Source of the DNA: Sumerlaeia bacterium
GTDB taxonomy: Bacteria; Sumerlaeota; Sumerlaeia; SLMS01; JAHLLQ01
Length of the DNA stretch: 64,000 nucleotides
Direction of reading: 5' to 3'
Assembly: GCA_040219255.1 (NCBI GenBank)
Contig: JAVJSW010000049.1
Coordinates: forward strand, 176,893-240,892
Shown: piece after piece, positions 29,267 to 38,056 of the stretch
How the letters are laid out: each line of letters opens with the position of its first letter
Numbering within the stretch: the stretch's first letter is position 1
Made by a program: the position numbers and the translations under genes
The notes under the pieces: generated by a model
The model's input: only the letters and a program-made list of their open reading frames with translations
What the model was told of the DNA's origin: nothing
Databases searched by the model: none

Positions 29267-30148
29267 ATGGCCATTCTTGTCACAGAAAACACCCGCCTGA
29301 TGATCCAGGGCATTACCGGCCGCGAAGGCCAGTTCCACGGCCGGCAAATGCTCGACTACGGCACCAAGGTCGTCGCCGGCGTCACCCCCGGCAAAGGCGG
29401 CCAGACCGCCCTCGGCACCGTCCCCGTCTTCAACACCGTCCAGGCCGCCGTCGACGAAACCGGCGCCAACACCACCATCATCTACGTCCCCCCGGCCTTC
29501 GCCGCCGACGCCGCCCTCGAAGCCATCGAAGCCAACCTCGACCTCGTCATCATCATCACCGAAGGCATCCCCACGCTCCAGATGATGACCGTCTATCATG
29601 AAGCCAAGCGCCGCGGCGTCGTCGTCATCGGCCCCAACTGCCCCGGCGTCATCAGCCCCGGCATCGCCAAAATCGGCATCATGCCCGGCCACATCCACAA
29701 ACCCGGCCGCGTCGGCCTCATCAGCCGCTCCGGCACCCTGACCTACGAAGTCGTCGACGCCCTCACCAAAGCCGGCGTCGGCCAGAGCACCTGCGTCGGC
29801 ATTGGCGGCGACCCCATCATCGGCTCCACCTTCGTGGATATCCTCGCCCACTTTGAAAAAGACCCCGACACCGACGCCGTCGTCGTCATCGGCGAAATCG
29901 GCGGCACCGACGAACAAGACGCCGCCCGCTTTGCCAAAGAGCACATGACCAAGCCCTGCGTCGGCTTCATCGCCGGCCGCACCGCCCCCCCCGGCAAACG
30001 CATGGGCCACGCCGGCGCCATCATCAGCGGCGGCGAAGGCACCGCCCAGGAAAAACTCCAGGTCATGCGCGACAACGGCGTCGCCACCTGCGACCTCCCC
30101 AGCGAAGTCCCCGCCCGCATCCAGGAAGTCCTCGCAGCGCGGGTGTAA
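29267..30148 (+). CDS. sucD: Succinate-CoA ligase alpha subunit
   Basis: [41 protein letters not shown]. Confidence 0.98.
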
Positions 30149-30204
30149 GGCTCCGCCGCCCGTTCGTAGTCCCGCCGCCCGGCGGAAGAAAGTCACTCCA
30201 TCGC

Positions 30205-30250
30205 AAGCCGCCGCATTCTCCTTCAAGGCAGAGTGCGGCGGCTTTCTTTT
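30205..30250 (+). terminator. Intrinsic terminator of sucD
   Basis: AAGCCGCCGCATTCT...AGAGTGCGGCGGCTT stem plus T-rich tail. Confidence 0.85.
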
Positions 30251-30325
30251 CGTTCTTTCATCTTTACCTCTTGAGCAGATAGGCCGCATCGTTCGTCCAC
30301 CAGTTCAAGCCAAGAGGACGATCCG

Positions 30326-31708
30326 ATGTCCGACGAGAAGTTGCTCAGTAAGACGCTCACTTTCGGTGTGGGCTTCCCCTACGCTTTCAATGTCAGGAAG
30401 GGCACCATTGAACCCCTTCAGGATGATGTGCGGAAAGCGGTCTATGAACACATGCGGCGCGCATCCTGTGCGGTTGCCCAAGCCTGCAACATCGAAACCG
30501 CCAAACGGTACGTTCAGGTAACCCTCGGGATCGACAAGTCCCAGGAGGAAATTAAACCATCCAACCCCGCCCTGCGCAAGCGCGTTGCCGATTGTGACTG
30601 GATTGCCGGGGGAACTCTTTCCCAGTCCTATAAGCTGACGGACCCACACTTCGCGGGTGACCATGGTAAGGAGCTTATCACAGTCGGTTCGCGCCAACTC
30701 CCAACCCATCGCACCGACGGCTCCCATCCAATCCCTTTTCGCCATGATGGCACACGCCTTTTCCTGCATGAGAAGGCCTACTGGCTTTGCGTTCAATTGC
30801 TTGAAGTCAAGTACGCAAAAACCAACAATCTGCCCAATTGGCTGGCCTTTCCCATCATCGCCAAGAAACGGGACAAGACACTCAATGGTCAACTCCAGCG
30901 GCTGACCACCGGGGAATGGATGCTACGCAATTCGCGCCTCGCCCGGAACATGCGCCGCAAAGGCCCCCGGTGGAATGGCCAGGTCGTCCTGCAGTACAAA
31001 CCCGAACCGTACAAGACCCTCAATCCCGGCGTCGTGATGGGGATCGACCTGGGGGTCAATGCGCCGGCCGCCATCCATATTCGCCCCCAGGGCTCGGAAG
31101 CCGGTGAGCATTGGGCCATGATCGTCGGCAACGGTCGCCAACTTCTTGCCTCGCGCAATGTCATCCGGTCGGAAATCCGAACTATCGTCCGCGGCCTCCG
31201 CGCCAAAGACAGCGGCCTCATCGGGGGCGCCCGCGCTCAGGCCCAGGAACGACTCCGTGACCTTCGCAAAAAGGAAAAAGCCATCATCAAGACCGGCTCT
31301 CAGCGAATCGCCAAACAAATCGCCGAGGCCGCCCGCCGCAATGGCGCTGGGACGTGGCAACTGGAAGACCTGAAGCTCAAGGGTGGGCTCAAGGAAGACA
31401 GTTGGCTGGCCCGCAATTGGGCGCCGGGGACCCTGATCGACGCCATTCGATGGAACGCGCAGAAACTTGGCGTGAGCCTCGTGCTCGTCAATCCGGCTTA
31501 CACGTCCCAGCGCTGCGCCAAGTGTGGCCACATTTCCCGGGCGAATCGCCCCAAGGCCAGCAAAGGGCAGGAGCACTTTCAATGTGTCGCCTGTGGCCGC
31601 AAAGAAAACGCCGACAAGAACGCCGCCAGAAATCTGTCCATCACCGGCATTCAGGACTTGATCGCTGCCACGGTTCCGCCTAAAGAAGAGTCCAATGGCT
31701 CTGAATAG
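30326..31708 (+). CDS. cas12f: Compact type V CRISPR effector, Cas12f1/TnpB-like RNA-guided nuclease (460 aa)
   Basis: RuvC-I MGIDLG (D241), RuvC-II GTWQLEDL (E347), zinc ribbon YTSQRCAKCG..FQCVACG, RuvC-III NADKNAARNL (D430); directly upstream of a CRISPR array; no tnpA adjacent. Confidence 0.88.
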   Translation: MSDEKLLSKTLTFGVGFPYAFNVRKGTIEPLQDDVRKAVYEHMRRASCAVAQACNIETAKRYVQVTLGIDKSQEEIKPSNPALRKRVADCDWIAGGTLSQSYKLTDPHFAGDHGKELITVGSRQLPTHRTDGSHPIPFRHDGTRLFLHEKAYWLCVQLLEVKYAKTNNLPNWLAFPIIAKKRDKTLNGQLQRLTTGEWMLRNSRLARNMRRKGPRWNGQVVLQYKPEPYKTLNPGVVMGIDLGVNAPAAIHIRPQGSEAGEHWAMIVGNGRQLLASRNVIRSEIRTIVRGLRAKDSGLIGGARAQAQERLRDLRKKEKAIIKTGSQRIAKQIAEAARRNGAGTWQLEDLKLKGGLKEDSWLARNWAPGTLIDAIRWNAQKLGVSLVLVNPAYTSQRCAKCGHISRANRPKASKGQEHFQCVACGRKENADKNAARNLSITGIQDLIAATVPPKEESNGSE

Positions 31709-32046
31709 AGCAGTTCGCCTGGGTGAATTGGAATCTCGCGATTCCTCTTCGGCTGGACGTGTGGCCTTCTCGCAGGCCAATCGGACCGGACCACTCCGGA
31801 GAGTGAATCCGGATCCGGAAGTCGCTTCTCGCAAGCGATGGCTGTCCCGATATCGGGACATGATACCTCGATTTCTTCCGCCAACCCCAAGCCAACAGGC
31901 TAAACCGGGGAGGACGGCGAAAACTGAAATCGTTGAGCTTAGGCGAAATTCTGAGCCCTGTGCATGGCGTCGGAAGGAGGGTCAAGGCGAGGTCGGCGAT
32001 GCCGCTAATCTTCGCCCCTGAGTTTGTTGACTTTGAGACATGGGCG
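31709..32046 (+). ncRNA. Putative tracrRNA plus short leader
   Basis: Nearly continuous hairpins; 31949-31970 complementary to the repeat; CCTCT at 31744-31748 complementary to the repeat 3' end AGAGG; boundaries unknown. Confidence 0.65.
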
Positions 32047-32877
32047 GTCGCAACTCGCGCTTAGGCAGGGATCAGAGGGGAAAGCTCCAGCACCGCCGGA
32101 CCGCCCCCGTCGCCCGTCGCAACTCGCGCTTAGGCAGGGATCAGAGGGAGTACACGCTGCTCGATCCGCCGCTGAACATCAAGTCGCAACTCGCGCTTAG
32201 GCAGGGATCAGAGGTGTAAGCAACTACTCAGAGACGCAGAGGAGAAAGAGTCGCAACTCGCGCTTAGGCAGGGATCAGAGGAACGTTTTGCCACACGGTT
32301 CGCAGTTCGGCATCCGTCGCAACTCGCGCTTAGGCAGGGATCAGAGGTTTTCTTCGACCCTTGGCATCATGAGCGAGAAATGTCGCAACTCGCGCTTAGG
32401 CAGGGATCAGAGGAACGGCTGGGTCAAATAACGTCAAGCGGTACGCGTCGCAACTCGCGCTTAGGCAGGGATCAGAGGCTCTTCTCCCGGAAGGAAATCA
32501 CCGAATTGCGAGGTCGCAACTCGCGCTTAGGCAGGGATCAGAGGAACGTCGACCCGGATGGGCACGAGAAGCACGTCCGTCGCAACTCGCGCTTAGGCAG
32601 GGATCAGAGGGAGATGCCAACGGGCGAGACCACCCCAAGACGATAGAGTCGCAACTCGCGCTTAGGCAGGGATCAGAGGACCATCACGGCGGTGGCGGCA
32701 TAATGGCTGAGCGTCGCAACTCGCGCTTAGGCAGGGATCAGAGGGGTGTCCAGGTAGGTGTTGTGCAGCCCGGCCCCCGTCGCAACTCGCGCTTAGGCAG
32801 GGATCAGAGGACGGCTCGCCGGTTCGTACGCGCAACCAGCGCCAGGTCGCAACTTGCGCCCAGGCAGGCATCAGCCC
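32047..32877 (+). CRISPR. CRISPR array: 12 identical 32-bp repeats plus 1 degenerate terminal repeat, 12 unique spacers of 33-37 bp
   Basis: Repeat GTCGCAACTCGCGCTTAGGCAGGGATCAGAGG at 32047, 32116, 32183, 32250, 32316, 32382, 32447, 32513, 32579, 32648, 32713, 32779; degenerate copy at 32846 implies + orientation. Confidence 0.99.
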
Positions 32878-32928: not shown

Positions 32929-33177
32929 GCCCGGCCGTTTCTCGTAGCTTGCTCTCCAGTTCGCTGCGAAGGAGAGGGCCCCATGCTCAGGAACCCGTTC
33001 ACCCGATCCAGGTGCCGCCGTGGGGCGGCGTGCGCGCGGGCGCCAACACCCGCTTGCGTCCGCCGCACGGTTCTCGCTAAAGCCTTGTGTCATCGGCGGC
33101 GCCCGTTCGCGGGCGAGCAGGCCCTGTGCGCCGCGCGGTGAACTCAACACGTGTACCCTAAGATCAAGGATCGTCCC

Positions 33178-35868
<2,691 letters not shown>

Positions 35869-36002
35869 GAACCGCCGTGCGGCGTGCTGCGTTCCGCGTG
35901 CTTCGTAGAGGGCGCGGGGCGGAGTTGCGAGTGAGACGGACATGATGGGCGCTGCCTTTCCCGGGGTGGATTAGAGAGGGAGGCTAAGGGAAAGGCGGCG
36001 CG

Positions 36003-36057
36003 CTGTCGCGTGAGTTAGGGCGGTTAAACTTGTGGGTTTTAACGGTGTGGGGGGGGG
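36003..36057 (-). repeat. Right copy of ~54-bp inverted repeat flanking acnA
   Basis: CTGTCGCGTGA-gtt-AGGGCGGTTAAACTTGTGGGTTTTAACGGTGT-G9. Confidence 0.9.
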
Positions 36058-36250
36058 CGCAAGAGCAAGACAATGGTGGGGACGTCAGGATTCACCTTAG
36101 GCCAGCATTCTCTTCGATTCAGCTCGGATTGACAGGCGCACTCCGTAGCGATACGATGTCATTTGTGGTCGATTGCAATCTAGTCAATTGAACCACATAT
36201 GATTTGATTGTGCCTAGGAGATTGATCCACATCGAGAAAGATTGTCCTCT

Positions 36251-37318
36251 ATGAAAACTTCTCAACCAATTCAGAAGACCGAGTCCTTTGTCGCGATTGC
36301 CCATTCAATCTACGTATCTAGGGGAGGAGCTTGGCCAAGCAAATCCGAATTACCTATGGGACTTGGAAATGGCTTGTTCATCGCTGATAAGGAGTATCTG
36401 ATGGGAATGGTTGACGTCGGTTGGCGCAGGCATGCTGATAGAGAAGTGAATAGACTCAAGCAATCTAACTTTGTCATTCTCAAGACAGGAAACTCGCACA
36501 GCCCCTTCGATTTTGATAAGAGCATCGAACTTCTAGCACATTGCGACCGTTTTTTTTGCGCTCTAGCTATGTGTGGAGTCGGATTCGGCGTTCAATCATT
36601 AAATTCTGGAGTTGAAATTATTGGAGAGTATTCAGGAGAGTCACCAGAGATCAGGAGCATGAGCTACATCCCAACATTCTACGGTCCTTGGAAAGGTTCT
36701 GAGTCTTCGTGGGAAGCAATTTCCCCTATTGATATATCAGAAAATGTCATCTTTAGAGCCCAAGCAATCACTTCCGGACTTGAGCGAATTGCCATGGCAG
36801 AGGGCGATTATGAGAGGCTTAATAAGGCATACTACATGTGGGGCATTGGGATGAAGACGTGGGACTGCCAAGAAAGATTAATACAGTTCGTACGCACAAT
36901 TGAATGTCTCTTCCCAGAGAAAGATTATGGAAAGAATAAATTTTGCGAGAATGGAAGAAAGAGCTTTTTCGTGTCGGCAGAAGCAGGTGGTGAAAAAAAA
37001 TCTATCCTATGGCGTTTGTATGAGATCAGGAATAAGCTGCAACACAATGCAAGCCTTTGTAGCGTCATTGAAGATTTCGGACCAAATGACGAGTCTAAGC
37101 ATCGTGTCATGGAACATTCCCTCCAGGCGGAGCTACTGGCATCTAATGCTCTTAGAAGGGTTCTTTCCAGCCCCAGCATAATACGTCATTATATAAATAA
37201 TGATGCGGTCGAAAGTCTATTCGCAGAGTTGCCGAATTCTAAGTATGCTTGTTTAGGCCAAGACTTTGATGTCTTGCACGAAATTGACAGCCGCCGCTCC
37301 ACTCAGACCGAAGTCTAG
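36251..37318 (+). CDS. Low-GC hypothetical protein with C-terminal HEPN-like RxxxxH motif
   Basis: Markedly AT-rich compared with its flanks; RLIQFVRTIECLF...LYEIRNKLQHN. Confidence 0.7.
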   Translation: MKTSQPIQKTESFVAIAHSIYVSRGGAWPSKSELPMGLGNGLFIADKEYLMGMVDVGWRRHADREVNRLKQSNFVILKTGNSHSPFDFDKSIELLAHCDRFFCALAMCGVGFGVQSLNSGVEIIGEYSGESPEIRSMSYIPTFYGPWKGSESSWEAISPIDISENVIFRAQAITSGLERIAMAEGDYERLNKAYYMWGIGMKTWDCQERLIQFVRTIECLFPEKDYGKNKFCENGRKSFFVSAEAGGEKKSILWRLYEIRNKLQHNASLCSVIEDFGPNDESKHRVMEHSLQAELLASNALRRVLSSPSIIRHYINNDAVESLFAELPNSKYACLGQDFDVLHEIDSRRSTQTEV

Positions 37319-37363
37319 GGGGTTTGCCGCTTAGTGAAGCCAAATATGTAGGTATCGAAGCCT

Positions 37364-38056
37364 TCACCACGGCCTCGGCGCATCCATCGCGAAAAACGGC
37401 AGGAACTCGCCGCTGGCTTCGCTGATGAGGATGTCGCGGTTGGCTTCGATTTCCGATTGCCAGGCGTGGGAGAGGTCGCGGGGGAAGCCTCGGACGATTT
37501 TCTCGCTGTAGCGCCGCGCCTGCTGCCAGACGGGGTGCGAGTGCGGTGCGGTGTCGAGGAGCCATGAGACCAAAGCCAATGCCCAATCGGGGGATTTGCT
37601 TAAATCATGGCACACCCGGGCGAGTTCGTAAACGCTTAAAAGAAAGCGGTTGTAATCTTCTTCTTCCTCGACGGCGGATTGCATCAGGGCGCGGGCGTAG
37701 ATGAGGGCGCGTTTGTTCTCGGCGCGCAGCAGGAGGGCGATGTCGAGGAACTTCATGAAGGCGAAGTTGCGGACGGCGACGGGCAGGTGGGGGTCGTCGG
37801 TGGCGATGTTGATGGCGCGGTCGATTTGATTGAGGGCGTCGCCGGCGCGGCCGCAAACGGCGTTCATCTGGGCGAGGTTGGCGCGGCAGATGAGGAGCGG
37901 CCGCTTGTCGTCGAGTTCCTCGGCGAGGCGCACGGCGCGGTGCATTTTGGGCAGGGCGGGGTCGAGATCGGGCGGGTTCTTGCCGCTGAACAAGGTGGCA
38001 GCCTCGCGCATCAGGGCGCTGATTCGCTGGCGCTTGAGCTTGTCGTCGTAATCCAT
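37364..38056 (-). CDS. Hypothetical all-alpha (TPR-like) protein
   Basis: Host-like codon usage; helical pattern such as NLAQMNAVCGRAGDALNQIDRAI. Confidence 0.6.
   Translation of the reverse strand: MDYDDKLKRQRISALMREAATLFSGKNPPDLDPALPKMHRAVRLAEELDDKRPLLICRANLAQMNAVCGRAGDALNQIDRAINIATDDPHLPVAVRNFAFMKFLDIALLLRAENKRALIYARALMQSAVEEEEDYNRFLLSVYELARVCHDLSKSPDWALALVSWLLDTAPHSHPVWQQARRYSEKIVRGFPRDLSHAWQSEIEANRDILISEASGEFLPFFAMDAPRPW

Follow-up and report, generated by a model that had tools for sequence, protein, structure and literature searches.

A compact type V-F CRISPR-Cas locus with a type I-C-like leader between its predicted tracrRNA and its array in a Sumerlaeia bacterium

The 64-kb stretch of DNA analyzed here (the window) comprises positions 176893-240892 of contig C49 in the draft genome of a Sumerlaeia bacterium (G000; 5.35 Mb, 83 contigs, 92% complete, 3.3% contamination). 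At positions 30326-32877 it carries a compact type V-F CRISPR-Cas locus of the Cas12f1-like, former V-U3, style, in which a nuclease gene is followed by a trans-activating CRISPR RNA (tracrRNA) and an array; these components very probably form one functional unit. By sequence criteria, the gap between gene and array consists of two elements in this subfamily: its first part encodes a predicted tracrRNA, and the final ~170 nt, adjoining the array, constitute a type I-C leader rather than tracrRNA, with I-C motifs at I-C distances. The interpretation that we favor, and consider likely, is that of a V-F locus with an I-C leader, its spacers supplied in trans by a co-resident type I-C system.

Results and discussion

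The effector belongs to an uncharacterized Cas12f subfamily

The nuclease gene (30326-31708, plus strand, ATG start) encodes a protein of 460 amino acids (aa) with a match to a single Pfam family, PF07282 (Cas12f1-like TNB), spanning residues 369-437 (E 1.5e-17; 64 bits, cut-off 26.3). In a search against all PDB chains the best 13 matches were all Cas12f/Cas14 proteins, some of them deposited under transposase or TnpB names, and the top match was AsCas12f (E 1.8e-29; residues 95-450 against 98-431, ~30% identity). The GIDLGV, QLEDL and NADKNAARN motifs of the protein align with the AsCas12f catalytic motifs and its two CxxC pairs with the AsCas12f zinc ribbon, as expected from the original prediction, which had drawn a parallel to type V-F effectors such as AsCas12f1 from the DNA letters and open reading frames (ORFs) of the window. 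The RuvC triad (D241, E347, D430) and zinc ribbon (C397, C400, C420, C423) that it had read as intact are invariant in 59 of 59 aligned family sequences, and a profile built from these 59 sequences matched AsCas12f with an E value of 1.7e-52 (profile positions 91-447). The prediction had also found no characterized counterpart for the N-terminal half. This holds for the first ~90 residues, which alone fail to align with AsCas12f, but not more widely, other solved Cas12f chains aligning from profile position 31 (9nzp), 40 (9i8y) or 67 (9nzq) compared with 91 for AsCas12f. Two of the four residues of AsCas12f that contact the protospacer-adjacent motif (PAM), H72 and Y76, sit in that ~90-residue stretch (10.1101/2023.07.03.547593). 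By homology, the protein would be an RNA-guided, RuvC-dependent double-stranded DNA nuclease, expected to act like AsCas12f as a dimer on one tracrRNA:CRISPR RNA (crRNA) pair with recognition of a 5' PAM. A homodimer prediction returned 'no answer' (score 0.18 against a mark of 0.42) and was not used either way. The protein was also considered as a Cas12f2; its score against the NCBIfam model NF049972 (95.5 bits) is far under the cut-off of 450, so this identity was rejected.

A word-based database search returned 58 full-length relatives (40-64% identity, 444-515 aa, at least 94% coverage), followed by fragments and then a drop to 85 bits or less. In an exhaustive HMMER search the number of representatives rose from 20 at E <= 1e-30 to 5718 at E <= 0.001. 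For phylogenetic placement, 162 loci with a tblastn match yielded 143 complete ORFs of 330-620 aa. The 86 rows of the tree were drawn from the 44 ORFs with a match beginning no later than query residue 175, 22 picked at random from the 47 with a start at 176-240, 12 family proteins, nine representatives and the protein of genome G072; the 52 ORFs with a match start beyond residue 240 were left out, and support values are FastTree local support only, with no bootstrap. The family formed a clade of 21 rows (support 100), sister (support 93) to 37 Cas12f1-type rows from Bacillota and others. An array lies within 1.5 kb downstream in 16 of these sister rows and is absent from six despite at least 1 kb of flank, whilst ten lack flank and five are context-free representatives. 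Both Cas12f clades were split (support 97) from 28 TnpB-like rows, two of which have an array.

These data bear on a rival explanation, in which the protein would be a TnpB of transposon type that has an omega-RNA, the repeats a by-product and the function transposon maintenance rather than immunity. The RuvC/zinc-ribbon core is of common ancestry with TnpB of IS200/IS605 elements (e.g. ISDra2), only the broad 'guided_TnpB' subfamily model of NCBIfam passes its cut-off (106.2 against 100 bits), the relatives found by the word-based search carry the database name 'transposase', and the array-less family member of G072 lies ~640 nt (stop codon to ORF) upstream of an IS200-like Y1_Tnp ORF (E 6.8e-8). 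However, the family does not nest among transposon-borne TnpBs but groups with CRISPR-associated Cas12f1 apart from the TnpB-like rows, and the specific NCBIfam models score far below their cut-offs (IS200_TnpB 28.6 against 425 bits, IS607_TnpB 46.4 against 350). Searches for Y1 transposase and serine recombinase on the window's stretch of contig C49 gave no match, in keeping with the earlier statement that the 64 kb holds no IS200/IS605/IS607 tnpA. Unlike an IS200/IS605 TnpB, the gene is also single copy, the sole PF07282 (TnpB/Cas12f-type) gene in 5.35 Mb, and stands with 12 different spacers and a separate, covarying tracrRNA. The TnpB explanation is thus largely refuted and we regard it as extremely improbable.

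Published or solved orthologues (AsCas12f, OsCas12f, RhCas12f, MG119-28, Un1Cas12f, SpaCas12f) are at most ~30% identical to the protein among the matches found. The suggestion of a new subfamily is upheld by the separate clade, its 58 relatives and the distance from AsCas12f, and the effector is a member of an uncharacterized subfamily within the known Cas12f kind. The family is rare: at E <= 1e-40 it was detected in three of 75 genomes of the phylum of the window (full length in G000 and G072, as a fragment in G033) and, in the phylum to which the Pirellulales assembly G075 belongs, in one of 401 genomes sampled. A record named 'Candidatus Sumerlaeota bacterium' matches the G072 protein exactly. 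A literature search, with patents and supplementary sequence lists outside its scope, found nothing on this subfamily or on Sumerlaeota Cas12f; Cas12f mining lists could hold a member.

A CRISPR array follows the gene on the same strand

The array (32047-32877, plus strand) contains 13 direct repeats, 12 of them identical and 32 nt long and the last (32846-32877) degenerate, with a start-to-start spacing of 65-69 nt and 12 unique spacers of 33-37 nt (mean 34.5, G+C 44-78%). It is separated from the stop codon of the nuclease gene by 338 nt (31709-32046). All 12 matches to the repeat (up to three mismatches) across the 5.35-Mb assembly lie in the array, and a reversed-pattern control gave none. 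Since the degenerate repeat is at the gene-distal end, the leader is on the gene side; the array would be read from there into repeat-spacer crRNAs. The 460-aa ORF, the gap and the same-strand 13-repeat array described in the original prediction were all recovered. Three of the 12 spacers start with AACG (32282, 32414, 32545), and A is the commonest first base among the spacers of five arrays examined together (35 of 99).

Same-strand arrays with related 32-nt repeats were found 321-361 nt downstream of family genes at one locus of the Pirellulales assembly (L014) and two metagenomic loci (L094 and L095), and at a comparable distance in G033, which shares its taxonomic family with G000. The gene-gap-array order is kept in four loci with full genes. 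No downstream array was present in G072 or on phage contig L179. The G072 locus (L174; C143:1-2421, minus strand) has a full-length family member and a conserved tracrRNA region but a lone repeat-like stretch at the usual distance, the 3' part of which pairs with the L174 anti-repeat. The viral contig (35.5 kb) encodes a family member 41% identical to the window protein and equal to P0123, with no tracrRNA-model match; upstream of it a 49-nt tandem repeat occurs in 2.5 copies at the contig end, and the start codon is immediately preceded by one stretch similar to the CRISPR repeat of the family.

The first part of the gap encodes a predicted tracrRNA

The gaps of L014, L094, L095 and G072 align with that of the window, and RNAalifold analysis of these five sequences gave 40 pairs, 19 with compensatory changes. 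Helices 1-5 account for 31 pairs, 17 of which are changed on both sides. Over the whole structure 92.3% of cells were paired, compared with 24.6-47.1% when the 3' partners were slid by one to three columns, and none of 500 shuffles reached any of the five measures. The structured gap noted originally is therefore seen as a covarying tracrRNA fold in five loci. The predicted tracrRNA core (31757-31873, plus strand) comprises five helices, among them a hairpin in the region of 31763-31780, a long bulged hairpin and two further hairpins ending at 31860, and an internal anti-repeat (~31861-31868); the 5' end may lie as early as ~31709. The G-U pairs on the plus strand are consistent with transcription of that strand. 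A covariance model matched the window at 31757-31932 and the G033 locus, which had not been used in training, with 110 bits; matches in loci of the sister Cas12f1 clade, full-length or partial, were weak (22 bits in an Oscillibacter locus).

The anti-repeat lies directly 3' of helix 5 and pairs with the guide-proximal 3' half of the repeat, at repeat positions ~17-29 in L094 and L095, 15-31 in L014, 22-29 in G033 and, in the window, 20-32, or 21-28 if read in the same register as the other loci. In a duplex-energy matrix the cognate anti-repeat:repeat pair was the most stable in five of five rows and four of five columns. This in silico covariation of anti-repeat and repeat identifies the first part of the gap as a predicted tracrRNA gene, and by analogy with AsCas12f the pairing would correspond to the guide-proximal duplex. 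The conserved position was obtained from half-repeat suboptimal duplexes and the alignment; when RNAduplex was run with the whole repeat against the whole gap the best places differed between loci. Helix 6 of a first tracrRNA model is no longer taken for an RNA helix, its inverted pair being found in type I-C leaders as well, and is assigned to the leader. A stretch at 31948-32001 (plus strand), inside the leader, is complementary to the repeat over nearly its full length (RNAduplex -33.9 kcal/mol); a similar stretch is present in L094, and in neither L014 nor L095 is its position conserved.

The second part of the gap resembles a type I-C leader

The remainder of the gap (31874-32046, plus strand) was recognized by an nhmmer profile built from 23 I-C leaders only. 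Searched against the whole genome and 44 loci, this profile found the two training leaders of G000 together with all five V-F leaders (L094, E 1.1e-8; G033, 2.8e-8; L095, 9.4e-8; L014, 5e-6). The window match (profile positions 5-181, E 7.4e-4) is at C49:208766-208933, corresponding to window positions 31874-32041, and the next match in the 5.35-Mb genome has an E value of 1. Each V-F match extends over all or most of the profile and stops 5-20 nt short of the first repeat, four of the five coming to within 13 nt of it. The original prediction had treated the gap as one structured element and did not see that half of it is a type I-C leader.

Three motifs of the window leader occupy positions corresponding to those of I-C leaders: CCGCCAACCCCAAGCC (31878-31893), GGACGGCGA (31912-31920) and GGTCGGCGAT (31991-32000), all on the plus strand, the last exactly 46 nt before the first repeat. 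For comparison, I-C loci were collected from the phylum of the window, where Cas1c exceeded the cut-off in 15 of 75 genomes, giving 16 loci with the array start in ten and not in six. The motif T[TC][CGT]GCG, starting at -53/-54 relative to the first repeat, was present in all ten I-C leaders and all five V-F leaders (chance at three given positions in this genome, 0.0128). A second copy at -131 to -145 was seen in nine of ten I-C and four of five V-F leaders, and an inverted partner (GCGCGAACCnnAAGC-like) at -166 to -180 in eight of ten and five of five, respectively. The window leader has in common with the I-C leader of contig C10, also in this genome, the 14-mer variant CGCCAACCCCAAGC and the 10-mer GGTCGGCGAT, the latter lying 46 nt from the repeat in both. 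Across the I-C leaders of two phyla (L197-L209, L220, L222-L239) the inverted pair GCGCGAACCnnAAGC ... GGTTCGCG occupies approximately -180 to -135, and a third motif, GGTTCGCG-like, begins at -53/-54. Between the two forward copies the distance is 78-79 nt in G000, as it is in every V-F leader that has both; the remaining seven I-C leaders of the phylum with both copies have 87-91 nt.

The sister clade differs in this respect, having gaps of 150-190 nt and lacking the I-C motif at -54; matches to the I-C leader profile are confined there to its first ~50 positions, with E values from 5e-5 to 0.5. The window gap is twice as long as those of the sister-clade loci examined, to which the AsCas12f locus does not belong, because the I-C leader stands between tracrRNA and array. 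A weak match to the I-C profile right after the stop codon was observed in sister loci (GGTTCGCAC), where the window (31709-31719) and G033 have AGCAGTTCGCC. No report of an I-C leader before a V-F array, or of V-F with I-C adaptation, was found in the literature, patents being outside the search. Within the reach of that search, the arrangement is a variant not yet described of adaptation in trans, itself a known theme.

A leader of this type raises the question of whether the array serves type I-C, with Cascade using the crRNAs and the cas12f-like gene merely adjacent. Such a role would also fit G033, which keeps 64 repeats though its cas12f has been cut to the last 94 codons. The repeats themselves, however, end at the 3' side in ...GGGATCAGAGG; although they have the I-C length of 32 nt, they lack the ending GGATTGAAAC present in all I-C repeats extracted, so the array is not an I-C array. 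The neighboring anti-repeat moreover covaries with these repeats and the gene-gap-array order is kept in the four full-gene loci, leaving service to Cascade with very little probability. The V-F repeat is identical to the C10 I-C repeat at 19 of 32 positions, a value reached by five of 20000 shuffles.

Co-resident type I-C systems may supply spacers in trans

Two complete I-C operons (cas3-cas5c-cas8c-cas7-cas4-cas1c-cas2), each followed by an array, are present in the genome at C49:1-9612, which is ~198 kb upstream of cas12f and not part of the window, and at C10:1-9421, with a third I-C-type array at C78:53-1084. All three loci are at contig ends, and the repeats in inverted orientation in the first 185 nt of C49 are probably an assembly artefact. 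Genome-wide, Cas1 and Cas2 matches occur at two places only (C49:1-2.5 kb and C10:1-2.5 kb) and none is in the window, which agrees with the claim that the 64 kb holds no cas1/cas2. The description of the locus as 'adaptation-less' is accordingly true in cis but not for the cell, two complete I-C sets with cas4-cas1-cas2 being encoded in the same genome. Absence of cas1, cas2 and cas4 with an array downstream of the gene is the rule for the greater Cas12f branch (PMC10691335), and the uCas preprint gives the same layout for other Cas12f loci (10.1101/2023.02.03.527072); the original prediction was thus right about the kind of system and overstated its rarity.

In the mechanism that we propose, Cas4-Cas1-Cas2 of the co-resident I-C systems would integrate new spacers in trans at the V-F array. 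The I-C PAM is 5'-TTC, and by our reasoning the PAM-proximal end of the spacer would be on the leader (5') side in both type I and type V, giving the same polarity. Spacers picked by I-C beside its PAM would consequently suit a Cas12f with a T-rich PAM, and a TTC-compatible PAM is predicted for this effector. Leaders of type I-C contain several subtype-specific motifs up to 100-200 bp upstream, the spacing of which to the repeat differs by subtype and is critical for integration, and for the I-F integrase tested in the same study it was leader folding and repeat length, not repeat sequence, that guided integration (10.1101/2023.05.26.542337). Given I-C motifs at I-C distances and a 32-nt repeat, the V-F array is a plausible substrate for the I-C integrase by these rules. 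In G033 the V-F array has 64 identical repeats and the genome encodes an I-C Cas1 with its own array of at least 33 repeats. The G033 locus (L190/L195; C32:2133-7100) retains tracrRNA, leader and array intact, and the remaining 94 codons of cas12f are 69% identical to the window gene product. The cas12f remnant adjoins a divergent gene of the phage-integrase family (PF00589, E 7.5e-22), and one stretch of the array reads N.

The principal rival to acquisition in trans accepts the same effector, tracrRNA and array but holds the array to be static, the I-C leader and I-C-like repeat recording ancestry by capture from, or recombination with, an I-C array and no acquisition taking place today. Insertion beside a pre-existing array is one of two possible origins of type V arrays (Altae-Tran et al., PMC10691335), the window array is short with its 12 spacers, the Pirellulales assembly has an array and no Cas1, and repeat ends and lengths of I-C-like form are seen in the sister clade too, which does not have the leader. 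Against this, the leader motifs and their distances are kept in five of five V-F loci of at least two phyla, whilst the sequence between them has diverged to 61-65% identity, which argues for selection on the motifs. All 12 repeats in the window and all 64 in G033 are identical, as in growing arrays, and the motif variants of the window match the C10 leader of its own genome. Spacers 23 and 25 of the G033 V-F array overlap over 23 nt with one mismatch and a 3-nt offset, as if sampled twice from one target, which suggests repeated sampling of one invader. On this evidence a static array appears rather unlikely.

Several results nevertheless weigh against acquisition from I-C in trans. The window leader gives the weakest of the five profile matches (E 7.4e-4), whole-leader identity is 61-65% for all pairs so that the I-C leader of the same genome is not singled out, and in the Planctomycetota (18 I-C loci, 14 arrays) the strict -54 motif is found in eight of 14 leaders, near variants and the upstream pair being visible in most of the others and one locus (L230) having been mis-extracted. 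Local alignments of the leaders were unremarkable against shuffles, the observed score being reached by between 13 and 291 of 300. The array geometry of the three I-C arrays of G000 (32-nt repeats, periods of 65-69 nt, mean spacers of 34.5-34.8 nt) is shared by the V-F array, but as the sister Cas12f1 clade has equal repeat and spacer lengths without an I-C leader, geometry alone is not diagnostic. Neither the Pirellulales genome G075, which holds L014 with at least six repeats (5.7 Mb, E <= 0.001), nor the G072 assembly contains Cas1, so in the assemblies examined the family is not always accompanied by I-C, and no I-C genes lie within 6 kb of L014, L094 or L095. Because the assembly is a draft with 3.3% contamination, the short contig C10 could in principle be another organism's; contig C49 itself holds both the V-F locus and one I-C system.

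The spacers also failed to connect the two systems or to reveal a target. No spacer is common to the V-F and I-C arrays. Searches with the array gave one match at E 0.8 among 50,697 phage records and 13 matches, all at E >= 0.8, among 72,556 plasmids; three 22-nt spacer heads each gave no match in IMG/VR, and the 99 spacers of five arrays matched the collected loci and the genome over 20 nt at most. No protospacer, and hence no PAM, was obtained from these phage, plasmid, IMG/VR and genome searches. The window spacers have no match beyond 19 nt in their own genome, an observation relevant to the further possibility that the nuclease has been co-opted for regulation or self-targeting, as in nuclease-dead Cas12f relatives. 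Such exaptations exist in the Cas12f1 neighborhood (PMC10691335; 10.1101/2025.06.10.658865), but the catalytic triad here is invariant and a multi-spacer array is present rather than a single guide, and a non-defense role is accordingly most unlikely.

Returning to spacer supply in trans, we judge the chances of present-day I-C-dependent acquisition at this array to be evenly balanced. The broader proposition that a whole Cas12f subfamily with an I-C leader is fed by I-C Cas4-Cas1-Cas2, a class 1 to class 2 partnership not described for V-F, is put forward tentatively, our confidence falling just short of even. The source of spacers for the many type V arrays without cas1/cas2 is an open question, and the leader offers a concrete answer in the form of the I-C integrase, pointing to defined motifs (31878-31893 and 31991-32000) and a predicted PAM. 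If correct, this would explain the growth of 'adaptation-less' Cas12f arrays such as the 64-repeat array of G033, the TTC-compatible PAM of the effector would have been predicted ahead of experiment, and leader typing could be used on other orphan arrays to predict their PAM and the adaptation system that acts as donor. Very small genome editors are being looked for among Cas12f nucleases, and the window provides a useful candidate, a 460-aa natural member of an uncharacterized subfamily with guide scaffold and repeat delimited.

Comparison with characterized systems

The best solved relative is AsCas12f1 from Acidibacillus sulfuroxidans (422 aa; V-F1, former V-U3; PDB 8j12, 8j3r, 7wju and 8dzj). 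It shares with the window locus the RuvC and zinc-ribbon residues, the order of gene, tracrRNA and array and the absence of cas1, cas2 and cas4 from the locus, and differs in the unaligned N-terminal stretch, the low identity and a length 38 aa shorter. The AsCas12f scaffold has six stems, four plus two repeat:anti-repeat duplexes (10.1101/2023.07.03.547593), compared with five helices and an anti-repeat here. OsCas12f1, RhCas12f1, Cas12f-MG119 (PDB 9nzo-9nzt) and the Firmicutes-type loci L016-L024 belong to the sister clade, which resembles the window locus in its 32-33-nt repeats beginning GTTGCAA and its weak tracrRNA-model matches, and differs in protein sequence (24-32% identity) as well as in the gap. 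In loci L016-L024, L100 and L106 the repeats (GTTGCAAC...TTGAAGG, 32-33 nt) and the spacer lengths are also I-C-like. Loci of Cas14a carry their own cas1, cas2 and cas4. Un1Cas12f1/Cas14a (PDB 7l48, 7c7l) is of the same effector family and more distant (E 1.2e-14, alignment from residue 225 on), and is a dimeric, tracrRNA-dependent double-stranded DNA nuclease (PMC8053092). Cross-type acquisition in trans, with a locus reliant on a co-resident integrase, is described for IV-A3 with I-E and VI-B with II-C (10.1101/2023.06.23.546257 and PMC8092290); unlike these, the pair here would be V-F with I-C, proposed from leader homology alone.

Genomic surroundings

The locus is flanked by a succinyl-CoA ligase alpha-type gene (29267-30148) and an aconitase gene (33151-35868), consistent with the placement between tricarboxylic acid cycle genes given originally. 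G+C content is 59.7% over 30001-32000 compared with 63-65% on either side. In an empty-site test sucD was present in 11 of 11 genomes of the taxonomic family, and aconitase was within ~7 kb downstream of it in none of the eight relatives examined; as this synteny is not conserved, no insertion site can be defined for the cas12f locus. A promoter scan of the locus gave no promoter-like sites, and terminator-like sites were at chance level and on the opposite strand. No Rfam family matched at its gathering score, a single sub-threshold match (Ocean-VII, E 0.25) falling inside the array. A 358-aa ORF belonging to no Pfam family and without an Rfam match lies at 36242-37318 (plus strand) in a low-G+C stretch just past the aconitase gene, where G+C falls to 51% (36001-38000).

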